DNA of 64,000 nt from Propionibacteriales bacterium (GCA_038254365.1 JBBSGI010000009.1:1227-65226); one strand, 5' to 3'. Shown: positions 36,131 to 44,739, counted from the stretch's first letter. Made by a program: numbers and translations. The notes: generated by a model from the letters alone, not told the origin.

Positions 36131-37318
36131 TCAAGACCCGGGGCCCTCCCGCTCAGCGAGCCAGGCGAGCACCGACCCGGTGTGCTCACCAAGTCGTGGT
36201 GGCGGGTCGTGATGGTCCCGTCCCCCGGCGAATGTCGAGTCGTCGAACCGGATCGGGGGCCCGGGGAGCTCGACCTCCCCCAGACCGGGCGCGTCGACGG
36301 ACACCACGAGGCCCTGGGACCTGGTCTGCTCCCAGGTGTAGACCTCGTCGAGGGATCGGACCCGGCCGGCCGGGACTCCGGCCGCGGCCAAGCGTTCTAC
36401 CCACTGTTGCGCGGTGGCTGCCGAGAGGGCGTCCTCGATCAGGGTGGCGAGCTCCTCCCGCCGCCCCACCCGATCCACGTTGGTAGCGAACCTGGGATCG
36501 TCGGGACTCAGCCCGACCAACGGAGCGAAGGCGCGCCAGAGACCCTCGCTGCCGCAGGCCACCTGGACAGGGGCGTCGGCTGCCTGGAAGAGCCCGTACG
36601 GCGCGATCGACGGGTGCTGGTTGCCGATGGCAACCGGCACCTCGTGGGCGACCGTCCACTGGGTGCCCTGGTAGGCGTGCACGCCGACGATCGCCGCCAG
36701 CAGGCTGGTGCGCACTACCCGGCCCCTGCCGGTCTGCTCGCGCTCGTACAGCGCCGAGAGCACTCCGGTGACGCCGTACATGCCGGCGAGCAGATCGCCG
36801 ATGGGCAGGCCGACCTTGGTCGGTTCGCCCGGCGGGCCGGTGACGCTCATCAGCCCTGCCTCACCCTGAGCAATCTGGTCGTAGCCTGCCCGACGACCTT
36901 CGGGGCCGTCATGGCCGAACCCGGTGATCGACAGCACGACAAGTCTCGGGTTGAGCTCATGTAGCTGCTCGACCGAGAGCCCGAGGCGGTCCAGCACGCC
37001 GGGGCGGAAGTTCTCACACAGCACGTCGCTGTGCCGCACCAACCGGCGCACCAGGTCGAGGCCGGCCGGCGACTTCAGGTCGGCGGTCACAGACTCCTTG
37101 TTGCGGTTGCAGCTCATGAAGTACGTCGAAAGCCGGTCGGGTCCCGAACCGGCGAACGGTGGGCCCCAGCCGCGGCTGTCGTCGCCGCCTTCCGGGTGCT
37201 CGATCTTGATCACCCGCGCGCCCAGGTCGCCCAGCATCATCGCGGCATGCGGACCGGCCAGGGCGCGCGTCAGGTCGAGCACGACGAGATCGCTGAGCGG
37301 GCCGATCGGGGCGCTCAT
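36131..37318 (-). CDS. CaiB/BaiF-family CoA transferase
   Basis: LSDLVVLDLTRALAGPHAAMMLGDLGARVIKIEHPEGGDDSRGWGPP is the family III CoA-transferase N-terminus. Confidence 0.88.
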   Translation of the reverse strand: MSAPIGPLSDLVVLDLTRALAGPHAAMMLGDLGARVIKIEHPEGGDDSRGWGPPFAGSGPDRLSTYFMSCNRNKESVTADLKSPAGLDLVRRLVRHSDVLCENFRPGVLDRLGLSVEQLHELNPRLVVLSITGFGHDGPEGRRAGYDQIAQGEAGLMSVTGPPGEPTKVGLPIGDLLAGMYGVTGVLSALYEREQTGRGRVVRTSLLAAIVGVHAYQGTQWTVAHEVPVAIGNQHPSIAPYGLFQAADAPVQVACGSEGLWRAFAPLVGLSPDDPRFATNVDRVGRREELATLIEDALSAATAQQWVERLAAAGVPAGRVRSLDEVYTWEQTRSQGLVVSVDAPGLGEVELPGPPIRFDDSTFAGGRDHHDPPPRLGEHTGSVLAWLAEREGPGS

Positions 37319-37359: not shown

Positions 37360-37508
37360 GCTCGCTCTGCTATCGTGAGGGGGCCGCCAGCCGTGGCGGT
37401 GTCAACTTCACAAGCTCGACGTAGGGGAAGCTGGTGAGACTCCAGCGCTGTCCCGCAACCGTGACCGGTGTCCGACACCGGCAGCCGGAATACCTGCGCC
37501 GAGCGAGC
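37360..37508 (+). promoter_or_regulatory. cobalamin (B12) riboswitch
   Basis: The conserved core AGGGGAAGCTGGTGAGACTCCAGCGCTGTCCCGCAACCGTGA is at 37421-37464 and the B12 box GCAGCCGGAATACCTGCGCC at 37481-37500. The closing helix is GCTCGCTC (37360) / GAGCGAGC (37501). Confidence 0.8.
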
Positions 37509-37615
37509 GGCTCCCCATCTGTCGAGGTCTGCAGGGTCGGAGTCATGGACAGCGCCGGCCCTGCTGCCGCCGCCCATCCGTTCCTGGGACCGCTCACCGA
37601 AAGGCCCCAGTCGTC

Positions 37616-38725
37616 ATGCTCTCCACCCGTGTGCGCGGCCTGTCCGCCGCCACCTTGTCCCTGACCCTCTCCCTCGGCCTCGCCTTCGCGACGATGTCGT
37701 CCCAGGCCGCTTCAGCTACCGCCGACCCGGCGACCGACTACGGAGCGAGGGGGCACCTCGCCGCCGAGTGGCAGGCCAGCCAGCTCGAGCACGGACACAT
37801 GCCCGGGTTTGCGCCTGGTTATCCCGACTGGGGTCTGACCATCGACACCGCCTACATGCTCGCGGCGGACGGCTCGCAGCCCGTCGTCTTGGCCCGGGTC
37901 AAGAAGGCCATCGCCCATCACATTCTCGACTATGCCGTCTACAACGGCGACACCGCTTCGGGGGCCATGGCGAAGGCGCTTCTGGTGAGCAAGGTCCTCA
38001 AGGCCGACCCGACCCACTTCGGTGGCATCAATGTTCGCAAGCGGGTGCTGAAGCTCATCGCGCCCGCCAGCGCGGGCTTCGAGCACGGCCGGCTCCGCGA
38101 CACGGGCGCGACCGACTACAGCAATGTCTTCGGCCAGTCCTACGGGACGATCGGCCTGGCCAGGTCCGGCGTGGTCCGGCAGTCGGTTGTCGACTACCTG
38201 GTCAAGCAGCGTTGCTCGGCCGGATACTTCCGCCTGTTCGAGACCGTGGGCGAGACCTGCGACCAGAGCGGGAGTGGCCCTGACGTGGACGCGACCGCGC
38301 TCGCTCTGCAGGCGCTGATCGCCGCCAAGGCGGATGGTGCGACGGTGCGCCACCAGATGATCGTGGACACGACGAGCTGGCTGATATCGGTGCAGAAGGC
38401 AGACGGGTCATACTCCGAGGACGCGACCGGTGGCTCTCCCAGCTCGAACTCCACCGGCCTGGCCGCCAACGCCTTGGTCGCGGCCGGCCACACCTCACCG
38501 CGGCTGAAGGCGGCCACCTGGGTAGCGAGCATGCAGCTCACCAAGGCGAACGCGGGCAGTGGACCGGCACGGACCGACATCGGGGCGATCGCGCTCAATC
38601 CCGCGGCGCTCTCTGACGCTATCGCCAACGGCCTGGGCGACAACCGCTCGCAGTGGTGGCGGGTGGCGCCTCAGGCGTCCTTCGCATTGCATCCCTCGCC
38701 GCTCGGAACGCTGACCGCGCCGTGA
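37616..38725 (+). CDS. secreted prenyltransferase/squalene-oxidase-repeat (alpha/alpha toroid) protein
   Basis: Signal peptide MLSTRVRGLSAATLSLTLSLGLAFATMSSQAASA. It has repeated Q-x-x-DG type motifs (VKQRCSAGYF, SVQKADGSYS, LQALIAA, NALVAAG). Confidence 0.7.
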   Translation: MLSTRVRGLSAATLSLTLSLGLAFATMSSQAASATADPATDYGARGHLAAEWQASQLEHGHMPGFAPGYPDWGLTIDTAYMLAADGSQPVVLARVKKAIAHHILDYAVYNGDTASGAMAKALLVSKVLKADPTHFGGINVRKRVLKLIAPASAGFEHGRLRDTGATDYSNVFGQSYGTIGLARSGVVRQSVVDYLVKQRCSAGYFRLFETVGETCDQSGSGPDVDATALALQALIAAKADGATVRHQMIVDTTSWLISVQKADGSYSEDATGGSPSSNSTGLAANALVAAGHTSPRLKAATWVASMQLTKANAGSGPARTDIGAIALNPAALSDAIANGLGDNRSQWWRVAPQASFALHPSPLGTLTAP

Positions 38726-39834
38726 CCGGCGGAGGTCGCTGGGGAACCCTCGCGGCCGGACTGCTGGTCGTCGGTGCCCTATCCGCGGGGACGGTGTCTA
38801 GTGCCGATGCGGTCGCAGGCGGAACACCGGGCTACTGCCCGACAAGAACCGGCGTCACCGTCGTCGTCGACTTCCAGGAGTTGGGGGGCGGCATCGTCGT
38901 CAGGTGCGCACCGGGTCCCGTCGTACCCGGCTACAGCGGGCTGGACGCCCTGCAGGACGCCGGCTTCACCCCCACGGGCGTTCGTCAGTACGGGCTTGCC
39001 TTCATCTGCCGAATAGCCGGCAAACCCGCTGCCGACCAGACACTCCCGATCGAGGGAGACCCGAACTACCGGGAGGACTGCAACCAGACGCCGCCGCAGC
39101 AGGCCTTCTGGGGTTACTGGTACGCCCCGGACGGAGGCAGCTGGACCTACAGCCAGCTTGCGGCGCTGAGCCGCGATGCGATCCCGGGTGGCTTCGAGGG
39201 CTGGTCATTCTCGCTCAACCATGTATCCGGGGACGCTCCAGCGCCCGGCATCGCGCCGAAGCGGCCACCGCGCACCCCTCCGACGACGCCTCCGACGACG
39301 CCTCCGACGACGACTCGGACCCCCCCGCCGCCGACGCCCCCGACGACGCCTCCGACGACGACTCGGACCCCCCCGCCGCCGACGCCCCCGACGACGTCAC
39401 CGACCACCCTGCCGCCGACGGCACCCACCCACTCGATACCGTCCCAACAGTCTCCGACCCATCAACCGAGAGGCCCCGGCTCAGGTTGGTCGGCTTCAGC
39501 GGGAAGCGGGCACCCCACGGCAAAGCCCACCCAGACGGCTCAACCCTCCTCTACCCACAAGCCGGAGCGCGGCAAGGGGGTATCGGGTGGCCCGGGGTCG
39601 GCGATCCACACCTCCGCGGGCGGGGCCAGGTCTCCAACCACGGAGAGTCCGGTCGACAACCCGGTCGCAGCGGGGCACAACGCGGCGGGCGAGCAGGTCA
39701 GCGGTGAGCTTCCGGACGCCGCGTCCTCCGACAGCGGGTCGGCCGCCACCGCAGTGCTGGGTATCGTCCTCGTCACCCTGCTGGCCGCGGGTGGCGGGAT
39801 GGCTGCCTGGCGGAGGAGAGCCGGCCGAGGATGA
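38722..39834 (+). CDS. DUF4430 (transcobalamin C-terminal-like) surface protein with Pro/Thr linker and C-terminal membrane anchor
   Basis: GTGA overlap with the upstream gene. Signal peptide, then a DUF4430-like core (GVTVVVDF...SGLDALQDAGF...FICRIAG...FWGYWYAPDGGSWTYS...GGFEGWSF), then PTTPPTT repeats. The terminal hydrophobic helix is followed by RRRAGRG. Confidence 0.65.
   Translation: MTGGGRWGTLAAGLLVVGALSAGTVSSADAVAGGTPGYCPTRTGVTVVVDFQELGGGIVVRCAPGPVVPGYSGLDALQDAGFTPTGVRQYGLAFICRIAGKPAADQTLPIEGDPNYREDCNQTPPQQAFWGYWYAPDGGSWTYSQLAALSRDAIPGGFEGWSFSLNHVSGDAPAPGIAPKRPPRTPPTTPPTTPPTTTRTPPPPTPPTTPPTTTRTPPPPTPPTTSPTTLPPTAPTHSIPSQQSPTHQPRGPGSGWSASAGSGHPTAKPTQTAQPSSTHKPERGKGVSGGPGSAIHTSAGGARSPTTESPVDNPVAAGHNAAGEQVSGELPDAASSDSGSAATAVLGIVLVTLLAAGGGMAAWRRRAGRG
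39277..39396 (+). repeat. tandem repeats in the Pro/Thr linker (2 x 12 bp then 2 x 48 bp perfect)
   Basis: CCTCCGACGACG is repeated twice. The 48-bp unit CCTCCGACGACGACTCGGACCCCCCCGCCGCCGACGCCCCCGACGACG is then repeated exactly at 39301-39348 and 39349-39396. Confidence 0.95.
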
Positions 39835-40940
39835 CCAGGCGTGGCGGCACGTACTGGCTGCCTCGGTCCCTGCACCCCCTCGCCTGGTGGCTGTGGGCGC
39901 TCGGCCTGACAGTGGCCGCCAGTCGGACCACGAACCCGGTACTGCTGGCGACCATTCTCGGCGTCGTCTGCTGGGTCGTGATGGCCCGGCGACCCGACGC
40001 GCCCTGGGCGCATGCCTTCCGGCTGTACGTCGTCGGAGGGCTGCTCGTCGTCGCGATCAGGGTGGTCTTCCGGGTCGTGTTCGCCGGGGATCAGGGTCAC
40101 GTCGTGCTGCTGTCTCTGCCGACGGTTCCGCTGCCGAGCGGGACCGGCATCCACCTGCTCGGCGACATCACGGCGGAGTCGATCCTGGAGGGGATCTATG
40201 ACGGCCTCCGCCTCGCGACGATGCTGATCTGCCTCGGCGCGGCGAACGCGCTGGCCAACCCCCGAAGGTTGCTCCGCTCGATGCCACCGGCGCTGCACGA
40301 GGTGAGTACCGCGGTGGTCGTCGCCCTGTCGGTCTTTCCCCAGCTGGCGGAGAGCGTGGTCCGGGTCCGGCGCGCCAGGCGGCTCCGGCCGGGCGGCGAC
40401 CAACGTGGCATCGCGGGGTTGCGCACGGTGGTGGTCCCGGTGCTGGAGGACGCCTTGGACCGCTCTCTGCTGCTGGCGGCCTCGATGGACTCGCGCGGCT
40501 ACGGCCGGGTGGCGGGACGCAGCAGGGCGATGACGCGCCTCACCGGCGGGCTGCTGGTCACCGGGCTCGGCGGGATCTGCGTTGGCGCGTACGCGTTGCT
40601 AGATGCGACCACCCCCCGGGTGCTGGCCACGCCGATGCTCATGGCAGGGGTGGTCGTGGGGGTGCTCGGCGTGTCATTGTCCGGGCGGGGAGTCACCAGG
40701 TCGTCCTACCGCCCGGACACCTGGCAGCTGGCCGAATGCCTCATCGTCGCCTCGGGACTCATTGCGGGCGTCACCGTCTACCTGACCTCGCGGGTCGACC
40801 CCGCCGAGCTCAACCCGTCGCTCAGCCCGCTGACCTGGCCGAAGGTCGCGCTGCTGCCGTTGATCGGTGTCCTGGTCGCGCTGGCGCCCGCGATGGGCAC
40901 CCCGGTCCCGGTTGACGACACGGTCACGGTACCTGCGTGA
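39831..40940 (+). CDS. ECF transporter transmembrane (T) component, CbiQ/EcfT family
   Basis: Multi-TMS protein with the conserved coupling region VRRARRLR...LEDALDRSLLLAASMDSRGYG. 4-nt overlap upstream. Confidence 0.8.
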   Translation: MTRRGGTYWLPRSLHPLAWWLWALGLTVAASRTTNPVLLATILGVVCWVVMARRPDAPWAHAFRLYVVGGLLVVAIRVVFRVVFAGDQGHVVLLSLPTVPLPSGTGIHLLGDITAESILEGIYDGLRLATMLICLGAANALANPRRLLRSMPPALHEVSTAVVVALSVFPQLAESVVRVRRARRLRPGGDQRGIAGLRTVVVPVLEDALDRSLLLAASMDSRGYGRVAGRSRAMTRLTGGLLVTGLGGICVGAYALLDATTPRVLATPMLMAGVVVGVLGVSLSGRGVTRSSYRPDTWQLAECLIVASGLIAGVTVYLTSRVDPAELNPSLSPLTWPKVALLPLIGVLVALAPAMGTPVPVDDTVTVPA

Positions 40941-42562
40941 TCTCCTTCTCCGACTTCTCGTTCTGGTATCCCGGCGCCGAAGACCCGGTGCTCGAGAACG
41001 TTCACCTCGAGGTGCAGGAGGGTGACTTCGCGCTGGTTGTCGGGCACACCGGGTCGGGCAAGTCGACGCTGCTGCGAGCGGTGAACGGTCTGGTCCCGCA
41101 CTTCACCGGCGGCCACGTCGAGGGCTCGGTCCGAGTCAGTGGGCTGGATCCTCGGCTGAAGCCGCCGCGGGAGCTCGCCGAGACCGTCGGCGTTGTCGGG
41201 CAGGACCCCTTGGCCGGGTTCGTCACCGACACGGTCGAGGAGGAGCTGGCCTATGGGATGGAGCAGCTCGCGGTCCGCCCTCAGGCCATGCGGCGACGGG
41301 TGGAGGAGGTCCTGGACCTGATGGGCATCGCCGCTCTGCGACGACGGCCGCTGCGGACGCTGTCCGGAGGGGAGCAGCAGCGGGTGGCGCTCGGATCGGT
41401 GCTGACCCAGAACCCGAAGGTGCTGGTTCTCGACGAACCGACGTCTGCGCTGGACCCGGCGGCGGCGGAGGACGCACTGGCGGCCGTGCTGCGCCTCGTG
41501 CACGACGTGGGGGTCACCGTGCTGGCGGCGGAGCACCGGCTGGAGCGGGTCGTGGAGTATGCCGACTCGCTGGTGGTGGTGGAAGGCCGGCGCGTCCGCT
41601 CCGGCCGACCCGCGGACTTGCTGCTGAGCTCACCGCTCGCGCCGCCGGTCGTCGAGCTCGCCCGGCTATGTGGTTGGCGACCGCTTCCGCTCTCCGTGCG
41701 AGACGCGCGCCGGCTGTCGGGCCCCCTGCGCGACCGGCTGTCGGGGTTGCGGCCGGCCGCCGTGGTCGAGGCCGTCGGCGACGCCGCGGACGGACTGGTC
41801 GCCCGGTCCGTGTCTGTCAGCTACGGCGCAACCGCCGCCCTGCGCCGCGCGGACCTGGAGGCTGCGCCGGGCGAGATCGTGGCCCTGATGGGACGTAACG
41901 GGTCGGGGAAGTCCTCGCTGCTGTGGGCCGTCCAGGGCAGCGTCCGGCGCTCGGGTGGATCGGTCCGCGTGGCGGGCCAGGACGTCACCAAGCTGCCTCG
42001 GGACGGCGCCTCGGGTCTGGTGGCCCTGGTCCCACAGCAGGCCACGGACCTGCTGTACCACGACAGCGTCCGGGCTGAGTGCGCGGCAGCCGATCGGGCA
42101 GCGGGGGCCCCGTCGGGGACGGCGCGGGCGATCTTCGACGAGCTCTGCCTCGGTGCGGCCGTTTCCGAGGCGGCCCACCCGCGTGACCTGTCTGACGGAC
42201 AGCGGCTGGCGCTGGCCCTGGCCGTCCAGCTCGCGCCGCGTCCAAGCGTCATCCTGCTCGACGAGCCGACCCGTGGGCTTGACTACCGGGCCAAGGCTCG
42301 GCTCCGTGGGATGCTGCGGGGCTTGGCCGCCGTGGGCAAGGCCGTCGTGGTGGCCACTCACGACGTCGAGTTCGTCGCCCAGACCGCCCAGCGGGTCGTC
42401 GTACTGGCCGAGGGGGAGGTCATCACGTCTGCTCCAACTGCGGAGGCGCTGGCCGCCTCGCCGGTGTTCGCACCGCAGGTTGCGAAAGTGCTGGCCCCGA
42501 TGGAGTGGCTGACCACGGACCAGGTAGTCGAGGCGCTCGAAGCGGAGGTCGCCCGTGGTTGA
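40937..42562 (+). CDS. ECF transporter ATPase, duplicated (A-A' fused) ABC protein
   Basis: Two ABC cassettes: GHTGSGKST / LSGGEQQR / VLDEPTS, and GRNGSGKSS / LSDGQRL / LLDEPTRGLD. Confidence 0.88.
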   Translation: MISFSDFSFWYPGAEDPVLENVHLEVQEGDFALVVGHTGSGKSTLLRAVNGLVPHFTGGHVEGSVRVSGLDPRLKPPRELAETVGVVGQDPLAGFVTDTVEEELAYGMEQLAVRPQAMRRRVEEVLDLMGIAALRRRPLRTLSGGEQQRVALGSVLTQNPKVLVLDEPTSALDPAAAEDALAAVLRLVHDVGVTVLAAEHRLERVVEYADSLVVVEGRRVRSGRPADLLLSSPLAPPVVELARLCGWRPLPLSVRDARRLSGPLRDRLSGLRPAAVVEAVGDAADGLVARSVSVSYGATAALRRADLEAAPGEIVALMGRNGSGKSSLLWAVQGSVRRSGGSVRVAGQDVTKLPRDGASGLVALVPQQATDLLYHDSVRAECAAADRAAGAPSGTARAIFDELCLGAAVSEAAHPRDLSDGQRLALALAVQLAPRPSVILLDEPTRGLDYRAKARLRGMLRGLAAVGKAVVVATHDVEFVAQTAQRVVVLAEGEVITSAPTAEALAASPVFAPQVAKVLAPMEWLTTDQVVEALEAEVARG

Positions 42563-43445
42563 GGTTGCCCACCGTTCGGCCCCCCAGCGGGTGCATCGTC
42601 TCGAGAACGACGTCTCAGTACTGCGGATCGGGACCAAGACCGGGACCCTGCTGTTGCTCGCGACGGTCGGTGGCCTGGTCATGTTCTGCTGGCCGCTGTT
42701 CGTGCACGCGTCGAACCACTCTTGGGGTCACACGACGGCTGCGCCGTTCGTCTTCGTCCTGGTGCTCCCGGTCCTGGTCGCTATCGTGCTGGCGTCGTTC
42801 AGCGAGGGAGGGATGGACTCGAAGGCGCTGGCGATGCTCGGCGTGCTGTCGGCGGTCAACGCAGCGCTGCGACCCCTCGGGGCGGGGATCGCCGGCGTCG
42901 AGACGGTGTTCTTCATGCTGGTGCTCGCCGGCCGGGTGTTCGGGCCGGGCTTCGGGTTCGTGCTCGGCTGTACGTCGATCTTCGCGTCCGCCTTGCTGAC
43001 CGCAGGGGTGGGTCCCTGGCTGCCGTTCCAGATGCTGGCGTCGGCGTGGATCGGGCTGGGCGCAGGCCTCCTGCCGAGGCGCCCTCGGGGCCGAGCGGAG
43101 GTTGTCATGCTGGTCGGCTACGGGGTGGTGGCGGCCTACGTCTTCGGCTTCCTGATGAACCTGTCCTTCTGGCCGTACGCGGTTGGGACCGGAACCCAGA
43201 TTTCGTTCGTGCCGGGGGCCGGTGTGTGGGAGAACTTGCACCGTTTCGTCTTCTACACCTTGACGACTTCGACCCTCGGATGGGACACCGGACGGGCAGT
43301 CACCAACTCGGTGGCGATTCTCACCTTCGGACCGGCGGTGCTCGCCACCCTACGTCGCGCGTCACGCCGCGCCTCCTTCGCGACACCGGCCCGTTCACCC
43401 GCCACCTGGGGATGGAAGACGACTAGCGCGGCCGCTCGTCGTTGA
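42555..43445 (+). CDS. ECF transporter substrate-specific (S) component
   Basis: Six hydrophobic spans. It is the last gene of the riboswitch-controlled operon and overlaps the ATPase gene by 8 nt. Confidence 0.65.
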   Translation: MVEVAHRSAPQRVHRLENDVSVLRIGTKTGTLLLLATVGGLVMFCWPLFVHASNHSWGHTTAAPFVFVLVLPVLVAIVLASFSEGGMDSKALAMLGVLSAVNAALRPLGAGIAGVETVFFMLVLAGRVFGPGFGFVLGCTSIFASALLTAGVGPWLPFQMLASAWIGLGAGLLPRRPRGRAEVVMLVGYGVVAAYVFGFLMNLSFWPYAVGTGTQISFVPGAGVWENLHRFVFYTLTTSTLGWDTGRAVTNSVAILTFGPAVLATLRRASRRASFATPARSPATWGWKTTSAAARR

Positions 43446-44739
43446 TGCGTTTGGCCTTGCCCAGTGAGCGTTCGAGTTCGTGCGGCTCGCAGATCTCGAC
43501 GGTCACCGTGACGCCGACGTGGTCCTTGATCAGCCGCGCCGCACTCTCGGCGAGTGCCTGTTTGGCGACCGGGCCGATCCCGTCCCGGCGGCTCTCCACC
43601 CGGACCGTCATCTCGTCGAGCCGCCCGGGACGGGCGAGCACGCATACGTAGTGCGGGGTCAGCCCTTCGACCTTGAGCAGCTGCTCCTCCACCTGGGTGG
43701 GGAAGACGTTGACGCCCCGCACGATCATCATGTCGTCGCTGCGCCCGGTGACCTTCTGCATGCGCCGGTACGACGGCCGGGCGGTCCCCGGCAGCAGCCG
43801 GGTCAGATCCCTCGTGCGGTAGCGGATCACCGGCATCGCCTGCTTGGTGAGCGAGGTGAAGACAAGTTCGCCTTCCTCGCCGTCGGGCAGCACCGCGCCG
43901 CTGACCGGGTCGACGATCTCGGGGTAGAACATGTCCTCCCAGACGTGCAGGCCGTCCTTGGTCTCCACGCACTCCTGAGCCACGCCGGGACCCATTACCT
44001 CGCTGAGGCCGTAGATGTCGACGGCGTGCATCGAGCAGCGTTCCTCGATCTCGTGCCGCATCTCGTCGGTCCATGGTTCCGCGCCGAAGATCCCGATCTC
44101 GAGCGACGAGCGTGCGGGGTCGAGTCCTTGGCGCTCCATCTCGTCGACGATCGCGAGAAAGTACGAAGGGGTCACCATGATCACCCGGGGGCGGAAGTCG
44201 TCGATCAGCTGGACCTGCCGCTCGGTCATCCCGCCGCTGACCGGGACCACGGTGCAGCCCAGCCGCTCCGCGCCGTAGTGCGCCCCGAGGCCGCCGGTGA
44301 ACAGCCCGTAGCCATAGGCCACGTGCAGCAGGTCGCCGCGTCGCGCTCCTGCCGCCCGGATCGAACGCGCCATCACGTCCGCCCAGTCGTCCAGGTCCGC
44401 CACGGTGTACCCGACCACGGTGGGCCGGCCCGTCGTACCACTCGACGCGTGCACGCGAGCTACCTCCTCGCGCGGCACCGAGAACATCCCGAACGGGTAG
44501 TTGTCACGCAGGTCGGCCTTGCTGGTCAAGGGGAAGCGGGCCAGGTCCTCGAGATGGTGGAGGTCGTCGGGCCGCATCCCGGCCGCGTCAAAGGCACGGG
44601 TGTAGTGCGGTACGTGGTCGTAGACGCGATGCAGCGTCTCCCGCATTCGGTTGAGCTGGTGGGTGCGCAACGCGTCGACAGACATGCGCTCGCGGTGGTC
44701 CCACAGTTCCTGCGGGGTGGACAGTGGCGGCGAGCTCAT
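43423..44739 (-). CDS. paaK: phenylacetate--CoA ligase
   Basis: LTSKADLRDNYPFGMF, HASSGTTGRPT and the PaaK C-terminal domain. 438 aa. Confidence 0.9.
   Translation of the reverse strand: MSSPPLSTPQELWDHRERMSVDALRTHQLNRMRETLHRVYDHVPHYTRAFDAAGMRPDDLHHLEDLARFPLTSKADLRDNYPFGMFSVPREEVARVHASSGTTGRPTVVGYTVADLDDWADVMARSIRAAGARRGDLLHVAYGYGLFTGGLGAHYGAERLGCTVVPVSGGMTERQVQLIDDFRPRVIMVTPSYFLAIVDEMERQGLDPARSSLEIGIFGAEPWTDEMRHEIEERCSMHAVDIYGLSEVMGPGVAQECVETKDGLHVWEDMFYPEIVDPVSGAVLPDGEEGELVFTSLTKQAMPVIRYRTRDLTRLLPGTARPSYRRMQKVTGRSDDMMIVRGVNVFPTQVEEQLLKVEGLTPHYVCVLARPGRLDEMTVRVESRRDGIGPVAKQALAESAARLIKDHVGVTVTVEICEPHELERSLGKAKRINDERPR

Follow-up and report, generated by a model that had tools for sequence, protein, structure and literature searches.

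Uptake of vitamin B12 by an energy-coupling factor (ECF) transporter is known from Lactobacillus delbrueckii, in which the ECF-CbrT complex (6FNP) transports cobalamin and cobinamide (Santos et al. 2018, PMC5997447). The transporter name CbrUVT, for systems predicted by Rodionov et al. 2009, is seen in PMC6593275 and PMC8123684. Secreted transcobalamin-like SLBB proteins, often joined to a toroid and encoded in operons with CbiQ/CbiO-like genes, were described by Burroughs et al. 2007 (PMC1796856); according to the accessible portion of that article, their hosts lacked B12 synthesis and B12 scavenging was predicted for them. Here, a stretch of 64,000 nucleotides from a Propionibacteriales bacterium (GCA_038254365.1, JBBSGI010000009.1:1227-65226), called the window below, was analysed. 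It contains a cobalamin riboswitch followed by five genes, g1 to g5, for a secreted toroid protein (g1), an anchored surface protein (g2) and the T (g3), A (g4) and S (g5) components of a predicted ECF transporter.

The operon is very probably a B12-repressed system for the scavenging and import of cobamides, of the CbrTUV/transcobalamin-like type. This reading was drawn from the parts of the operon, the folds and homologies of its products, the conserved link to a riboswitch and the gene content of the host. An original prediction, made from the DNA sequence, had proposed B12-repressed uptake of a corrinoid or corrinoid precursor. Repressed corrinoid uptake is supported along four independent lines, by the riboswitch link in 28 of 35 relatives, the kinship of g5 with CbrT, the fold of g2 and the genes present in the host.

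Riboswitch, operon and transporter

The aptamer was identified with cmscan as a match to RF00174 covering the full model (1-189), on the coding strand and 5' of the operon. Its score was 40.8 bits for a gathering score of 31.5 (E 7.3e-07), so that the covariance model places the predicted riboswitch above threshold. No other Rfam family gave an above-threshold match in the window, and RF00174 matched only once across the 3.47-Mb host genome. The conserved core (GGGAAGCUGGUGAGACUCCAGCGCUGUCCCGCAACCGUGA) was located at about 37424-37464 and the B12 box (AGCCGGAAUACCUGCG) at 37483-37498, both within the ranges proposed for them (37421-37464 and 37481-37500). The aptamer end is separated by 100 nt from the ATG of g1. 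When this leader was aligned with those of relatives (six leaders), two conserved blocks were recognized, CUGUCGAGGUCUGCAGG at about 37519-37535 and CCGUUCCUGGGACCGCUC at about 37575-37592. A GC-rich hairpin lies at about 37532-37566, and a Shine-Dalgarno-like GAAAGG at 37599-37604, 11 nt 5' of the g1 ATG.

The link between riboswitch and transporter was then followed in 41 related genomes, which were searched with g5 and RF00174. A g5 homologue was present in 35 of them. In 28 of these 35, the S gene is preceded on its own strand and contig by an RF00174 match at a distance of 3.5-6.5 kb; 21 of the matches scored above the gathering score and seven at 24-31 bits. Homologous matches in relatives occupy the same position as the aptamer here. 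In three further relatives, the contig ends between the S gene and the riboswitch position. The upstream RF00174 match is the sole riboswitch match in most genomes of the host genus and family, and the operon looks like the sole B12-regulated locus of this actinobacterial lineage. Service of the riboswitch to the divergent CoA-transferase gene was considered and ruled out, the aptamer being on the plus strand and its link to the ECF operon being conserved.

The gene layout was compared in the loci fetched from relatives. Five of them have the same five-gene layout as the window. A shorter layout was seen in 11 of the fetched loci, with a true SCO2322-family gene replacing g1 and g2 directly before EcfT-EcfAA'-S; the SCO2322 genes of four shorter operons were scanned and scored 126-165 bits. 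Two genomes of about 8 Mb from one genus, G026 and G030, carry the SCO2322-EcfT-EcfAA'-S operon and are CobQ-positive. At the G030 locus (L010) the riboswitch is degenerate (24.5 bits), and at the G026 locus (L020) no riboswitch was found upstream of the operon at E<=0.1. Regulation may have been lost or altered in B12 producers such as these.

The T component, g3, matches CbiQ/EcfT (PF02361) with 40.4 bits for a cut-off of 25, over residues 17-226. Hydropathy indicates a C-terminal extra block of about four transmembrane helices at residues ~239-357, in the part of the chain beyond the CbiQ domain (residues ~239-369, 40545-40940 in the window), and this extension is kept in relatives, in which tblastn coverage reaches residue ~360. 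The g4 product (541 aa) has two ABC_tran domains in one chain (PF00005, two stretches, E 5.1e-51). Its best NCBIfam matches are ECF_ATPase_1/2 (TIGR04520/04521) at about 270 bits, below the equivalog cut-offs of 315/330, and it is classed by its domain content as a fused EcfA-A'. The g5 product (296 aa) matches PF07155 at 26.7 bits, exactly the cut-off; in its family, PF12822 is matched by 31 of 39 members and PF07155 by 23 of 39. These matches agree with the EcfT, fused EcfA-A' and S component named in the original prediction.

Homologues of g5 are numerous: more than 7,900 are close, those named coming from Nocardioidaceae, and 1,441 representatives remain at 50% identity (E<=1e-3). A family profile was built from 39 diverse members and compared with the PDB. 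CbrT (6FNP_A) was the best solved relative, with E 2.6e-08 and residues 4-179 of 182 aligned. FolT was far behind (E 0.012), and it was the only further S component to score. The comparison with CbrT that had been proposed for this S component thus came out in its favour, and g5 does not fall in a family with a known non-corrinoid substrate. A phmmer search of the PDB with the single g5 sequence found nothing; the kinship is a distant one, since CbrT is seen with the profile and not with one sequence. From the profile alignment, g5 is assigned as a distant CbrT relative in which a CbrT-like core follows two added N-terminal transmembrane helices (residues 32-50 and 62-80, about 42648-42794 in the window). 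The anchored surface protein may dock on the extra helices of g3 and g5.

The same matches could be read as those of a cobalt transporter of the CbiMNQO kind, as g3 matches the Pfam CbiQ cobalt transport protein, g4 matches TIGR01166 (cbiO) and B12 riboswitches often control cobalt transporters. The CbiQ and CbiO models are, however, generic for ECF T and A components. No CbiM match was obtained with g5 at E<=0.01 in Pfam or NCBIfam, its nearest relative being CbrT; the operon has no CbiN-sized gene; no corrin synthesis genes, which would make use of imported cobalt, were found in the host; and transcobalamin-type surface proteins play no role in ion uptake. Cobalt import is scarcely credible as the function of this operon.

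The coordinates of all features are collected in Table 1. Successive genes overlap by 4, 4, 4 and 8 nt, exactly the junctions originally given for five overlapping genes. The operon is bounded upstream by a divergent gene and downstream by a convergent one. The last 23 nt of g5 (43423-43445) are shared with the convergent gene, and there is therefore no space for a terminator between them.

Table 1. Coordinates of the riboswitch, the operon and the adjoining genes in the window
Feature	Coordinates	Strand	Remarks
Family III CoA-transferase gene	36131-37318	-	Divergent, bounds operon upstream
Cobalamin riboswitch aptamer (RF00174)	37382-37515	+	cmscan
Leader/expression platform	37516-37615	+	Alignment of six leaders
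g1	37616-38725	+	Open reading frame
g2	38722-39834	+	GTG start within open reading frame 38653-39834
g3	39831-40940	+	Open reading frame
g4	40937-42562	+	Open reading frame
g5	42555-43445	+	Open reading frame
Gene with AMP-binding enzyme domains	43423-44739	-	Convergent, bounds operon downstream

The exported proteins g1 and g2

The g2 protein (370 aa) consists of a signal peptide, a head of about 150 aa (38794-39276 in the window), a Pro/Thr stalk and a C-terminal transmembrane anchor at residues 344-362. Four Cys of the head are invariant. The head was modelled with AlphaFold 2 (mean predicted local distance difference test score, pLDDT, 90.3) and compared exhaustively with 48,161 PDB chains (VIA-wide comparison). 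Only five chains reached Z>=8. Four of them are B12 carriers aligned on their beta domains (transcobalamin from human and from cattle, haptocorrin and intrinsic factor), and the fifth is the DUF4430 protein 3u7z; the score then falls to 5.7. The same transcobalamin-type set was placed first by Foldseek, with weak E-values. In the model, a helix (49-55) is followed by a hairpin (60-63/67-74), and a beta-hairpin following the helix is the feature that defines the transcobalamin-like SLBB clade in the accessible text of PMC1796856. As modelled, the g2 head is of the transcobalamin-beta/DUF4430 (SLBB) fold. Homologues of g2 carry PF28005 in precomputed annotation. A single-sequence phmmer search of the PDB with g2 gave nothing meaningful.

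Two side observations were made on g2. At 39275-39404, the part of the gene encoding the Pro/Thr stalk contains 2.7 copies of a 48-bp tandem repeat (93% matches), which suggests that stalk length is variable. In genome G022, an additional gene with a g2-like head (L005:6777-7214, 48% identical) is located upstream of the g1 homologue, and this genome thus has two SLBB-type proteins and a toroid. Paralogous SLBB pairs are noted in the accessible portion of Burroughs et al. (PMC1796856).

The g1 protein (369 aa) carries a Sec signal peptide and lacks a membrane anchor, and its AlphaFold 2 model (pLDDT 92.4) is an (alpha/alpha)6 toroid. Signal peptide and model bear out the secreted alpha/alpha-toroid protein that had been proposed. 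By VIA-align, the model is closest to class II terpene cyclases (Z ~25); numerous unrelated toroids follow at Z 22-24. Transcobalamin (TC:CD320) was found at Foldseek rank 14 (E 9.6e-05) and lies outside the top 50 by VIA Z. On the model, g1 is of the same fold class as the transcobalamin alpha domain, a likeness of class without a demonstrated specific relation. Sequence comparisons gave no match to Pfam Cobalamin_bind (PF01122), matches of 16-17 bits to the Prenyltrans/SQHop Pfam families, under cut-offs of about 26, and a partial match of 78.5 bits to NCBIfam SCO2321_fam (NF053823), for which the cut-off is 300. Nothing meaningful was obtained by single-sequence phmmer against the PDB.

An active terpene cyclase or prenyltransferase was considered for g1. 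In squalene-hopene cyclase, the last Asp of the DxDD motif is needed. The corresponding conserved motif of g1 is DVDATA, and none of 47 homologues has Asp at the fourth position; the missing Asp and the secretion of the protein therefore argue against catalysis. Such an enzyme was rejected because the DxDD motif is incomplete, a signal peptide is present and the context of the operon does not suit it. The g1 protein is regarded as a putative corrinoid-capture partner.

A natural fusion hints that g1 and g2 act together. The metagenomic protein P0209 (587 aa) joins a g1-like toroid (residues 44-362, 45% identical to g1) to a g2-like head (residues 374-519, 53% identical to g2). Its domain order is transcobalamin-like, and its C-terminal tail resembles an anchor. 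Complex prediction for residues 37-369 of g1 and the g2 domain, run with alignments, gave no verdict (score 0.02, mark 0.32) and was counted neither way. Tentatively, g1 and g2 could together be a split, membrane-tethered transcobalamin, in which a cobamide would be sandwiched between toroid and beta-grasp domain and delivered to the CbrT-like S component, with docking on the extra transmembrane helices of EcfT and S; we take this as somewhat less probable than not. If it were true, the system would be an ECF transporter depending on extracytoplasmic binding proteins, a class of transporters that is defined as being without them, and would offer a bacterial model for the origin of the animal B12 carriers.

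Host physiology and the transported substrate

The host assembly is a 3.47-Mb metagenome-assembled genome of 215 contigs (92.8% complete, 6.8% contamination). Its B12-dependent enzymes were identified by profile searches. They include the ribonucleotide reductase NrdJ (598 bits, C27:6892-8535) and the methionine synthase MetH (1404 bits, C68:10506-13952), and four proteins of the methylmalonyl-CoA mutase family and a PduO-type adenosyltransferase are also encoded. The searches of the host genome found neither MetE nor the small subunit of a class I ribonucleotide reductase, and none of CobQ, CobS, CbiC and CobD/CbiB. No CobQ and no MetE were found in any of the six other genomes of the host genus (up to 98% complete), and no MetE among genomes of the host family. 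On the present assembly, the synthesis of deoxyribonucleotides (NrdJ only) and of methionine (MetH only) looks obligately B12-dependent, and judged by its gene content the host looks both B12-dependent and B12-auxotrophic. The S gene was found in 22 of 22 CobQ-negative relatives, and the six relatives without an S gene were all CobQ-positive; these genomes are kin and not independent, and the co-occurrence is read as a pattern, not as a statistic. The operon is probably the main B12 supply line of the lineage.

Since no corrin or nucleotide-loop genes were found in the host, the substrate of use to it is most likely a complete cobamide, as opposed to a precursor. Import of a precursor or fragment (cobinamide, cobyrinic acid diamide, or a lower ligand/alpha-ribazole) was weighed against it. 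The original "Cbr" prediction was for the uptake of cobyrinate diamide or a cobalamin precursor, CbrUVT being labelled "cobyrinate diamide uptake" in the accessible portion of PMC8123684, and ECF-CbrT also carries cobinamide (PMC5997447). Two related genomes add a further argument. In G032 (L016:1019-4732) and G039 (L019:1060-4868), an operon led by RF00174 (58 bits) ends with a second S paralogue, which shares about 48% identity with g5. The operon encodes CobS and a CobT-CobU fusion of 681 aa, and has no T or A genes. This neighbourhood is a link of the S family to corrinoid metabolism that does not depend on the ECF module. Presumably the paralogue works with the ECF module of the full operon at another place in the genome, and its substrate may be cobinamide or a lower-ligand precursor; its co-transcription with cobT/U and cobS fits cobinamide or base salvage there. 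In the present host, however, CobQ, CobD, CobS and CbiC were not found, nor was CobQ in relatives of the genus, and a precursor could therefore not be finished. Precursor import is accordingly unlikely to be the function here, and promiscuous uptake of precursors beside B12 may be a nuance of the same function, not a different one.

A more distant S paralogue was noticed in G040 (L021:6450-6535). It is 28% identical to g5 and located downstream of an AdoCbl-II match (RF01689) that, with 33.8 bits, narrowly misses the gathering score of 36.5. In this genome, a related transporter may be under the control of another class of riboswitch.

Under the preferred reading of repressed cobamide import, the operon would work as follows. 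At high intracellular (adenosyl)cobalamin, the ligand would bind the aptamer and the expression of the five translationally coupled genes would be lowered. When B12 is scarce, the soluble toroid g1 would be exported and g2 would be made, tethered to the membrane by its long Pro/Thr stalk. Alone or jointly, the two proteins would capture a cobamide outside the cell and pass it to the CbrT-like g5, and EcfT (g3) and EcfA-A' (g4) would drive its import with ATP. The imported cofactor would then be adenosylated by PduO for NrdJ and the mutases, and MetH would use methylcobalamin.

Heme or another non-corrin tetrapyrrole is the other substrate to be considered, the transcobalamin-like proteins then being heme scavengers. 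A system with the same five parts, likened here by description, is encoded by Lsa1836-1840 of Latilactobacillus sakei (Verplaetse et al., 10.1101/864751). Its gene order is reversed (S-A-T-beta-alpha) and, in the accessible text of the report, a heme uptake phenotype is given and no riboswitch is mentioned. Among the papers found, this is the only experimental study on such a five-gene system. Gating by a cobalamin riboswitch would nevertheless serve no purpose in an importer of heme, and 28 of 35 relatives keep this link. Hemin did not inhibit ECF-CbrT, to which g5 is nearest among solved S components (PMC5997447), an S paralogue adjoins cobT/U-cobS, and the operon occurs in 22 of 22 CobQ-negative relatives. 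Heme import is thus very improbable for this operon.

The following points weigh against B12-repressed cobamide import and were considered together. The homologous L. sakei system is linked genetically to the heme content of the cell (10.1101/864751, accessible portion), and the ligand does not follow from toroid and SLBB folds alone. No riboswitch was found upstream of the operon in three complete genomes that belong to one related genus. A scan of the leader for an intrinsic terminator or a sigma-70 promoter gave no match. Minimum-free-energy and partition-function folding of the leader, with and without the aptamer, gave an identical small hairpin around the Shine-Dalgarno sequence (z-score ~0), with no clear switch sequestering that sequence and no clear alternative structures. 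Since an intrinsic terminator is absent from the platform, the riboswitch probably acts on translation and/or through Rho. The nearest structural neighbours of g1 are terpene cyclases and other toroids, not transcobalamin. No Pfam family, DUF4430 (PF14478) included, was matched by g2 and three of its homologues at E<=1, and g2 reached 21.3 bits with NCBIfam SCO2322_fam (NF040672), for which the cut-off is 85. The "DUF4430 surface protein" of the original prediction therefore stands for its fold and its surface location and falls for Pfam sequence membership, the label resting on fold. The host assembly is incomplete and cob genes cluster, so that such genes could be hidden by one missing contig. 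The host also has, elsewhere in its genome, one FecCD-type ABC importer with no riboswitch nearby (permease 218 bits, BtuC cut-off 461), and the operon therefore need not be the sole B12 route. Lastly, we infer that g1 and g2 bind ligand and that g5 receives it from them, as well as which species is transported and how the riboswitch gates expression, and the support for the substrate is contextual.

Comparison with known systems

In the accessible literature, no biochemical B12 test of such a system was found for actinobacteria, nor any test of surface proteins that bind B12 and feed an ECF transporter, and no relevant paper was found on SCO2321-SCO2325. Surface transcobalamin-like binders feeding an ECF importer have been predicted for almost 20 years. 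B12-requiring bacteria are mostly non-producers, and the acquisition route thus shapes soil and gut communities. With its single riboswitch, this genetic background is a clean setting for the question of the substrate and for that of the use of external binding proteins by an ECF transporter.

Like ECF-CbrT, the system is a predicted ATP-driven ECF vitamin importer in a B12-related context, with S components of common kinship, and its layout of a dedicated T component, a fused double ATPase and an S component is that of CbrU/V/T. The CbrT of L. delbrueckii has 182 aa, uses a shared ECF module (group II) and is encoded in an nrdJ-cbrS-cbrT-pduO cluster, whereas the module here is dedicated (group I). 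Unlike that CbrT, g5 has two extra N-terminal transmembrane helices in its 296 aa, and EcfT has about four extra C-terminal ones.

The systems of Burroughs et al. share the logic seen here, an SLBB protein with a beta-hairpin insert beside or joined to a toroid and close to CbiO/CbiQ-like genes. In the accessible portion of that article, the set comes mainly from Firmicutes and archaea, and riboswitches were not used. Compared with that portion, the toroid and the SLBB protein are here encoded by separate genes, the anchor is a transmembrane helix on a Pro/Thr stalk and not LPXTG, and the SLBB domain is invisible to Pfam.

The beta domain of the animal carriers transcobalamin, intrinsic factor and haptocorrin (2bb6, 2pmv, 4kkj, 5no0) resembles the g2 head with Z 8.1-8.7 over 95-101 aligned residues. 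Their alpha domain is of the alpha6/alpha6 toroid class that is common with g1 (Foldseek E ~1e-4). Unlike these carriers, the present system is made of two polypeptides, identity is 11-17%, and g1 is nearer to terpene cyclases.

With the SCO2321 and SCO2322 families of Streptomyces-type actinobacteria, g1 and g2 are distant relatives and not members, because their scores are far below the curated cut-offs. BtuFCD has a role in common with the proposed one, high-affinity B12 import often controlled by a cobalamin riboswitch and served by an extracytoplasmic binding protein; its architecture, a FecCD-type permease dimer with a class III binding protein, is unrelated.

The novelty implied in the original prediction was overstated, as predictions of 2007-2009 had already combined transcobalamin-like surface proteins with ECF-type uptake of B12, and transport by ECF-CbrT was demonstrated in 2018. 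Beside these systems, the operon is a well-formed example of a known, predicted and common design and is not new in kind; for annotation, it is a solid yet ordinary example.

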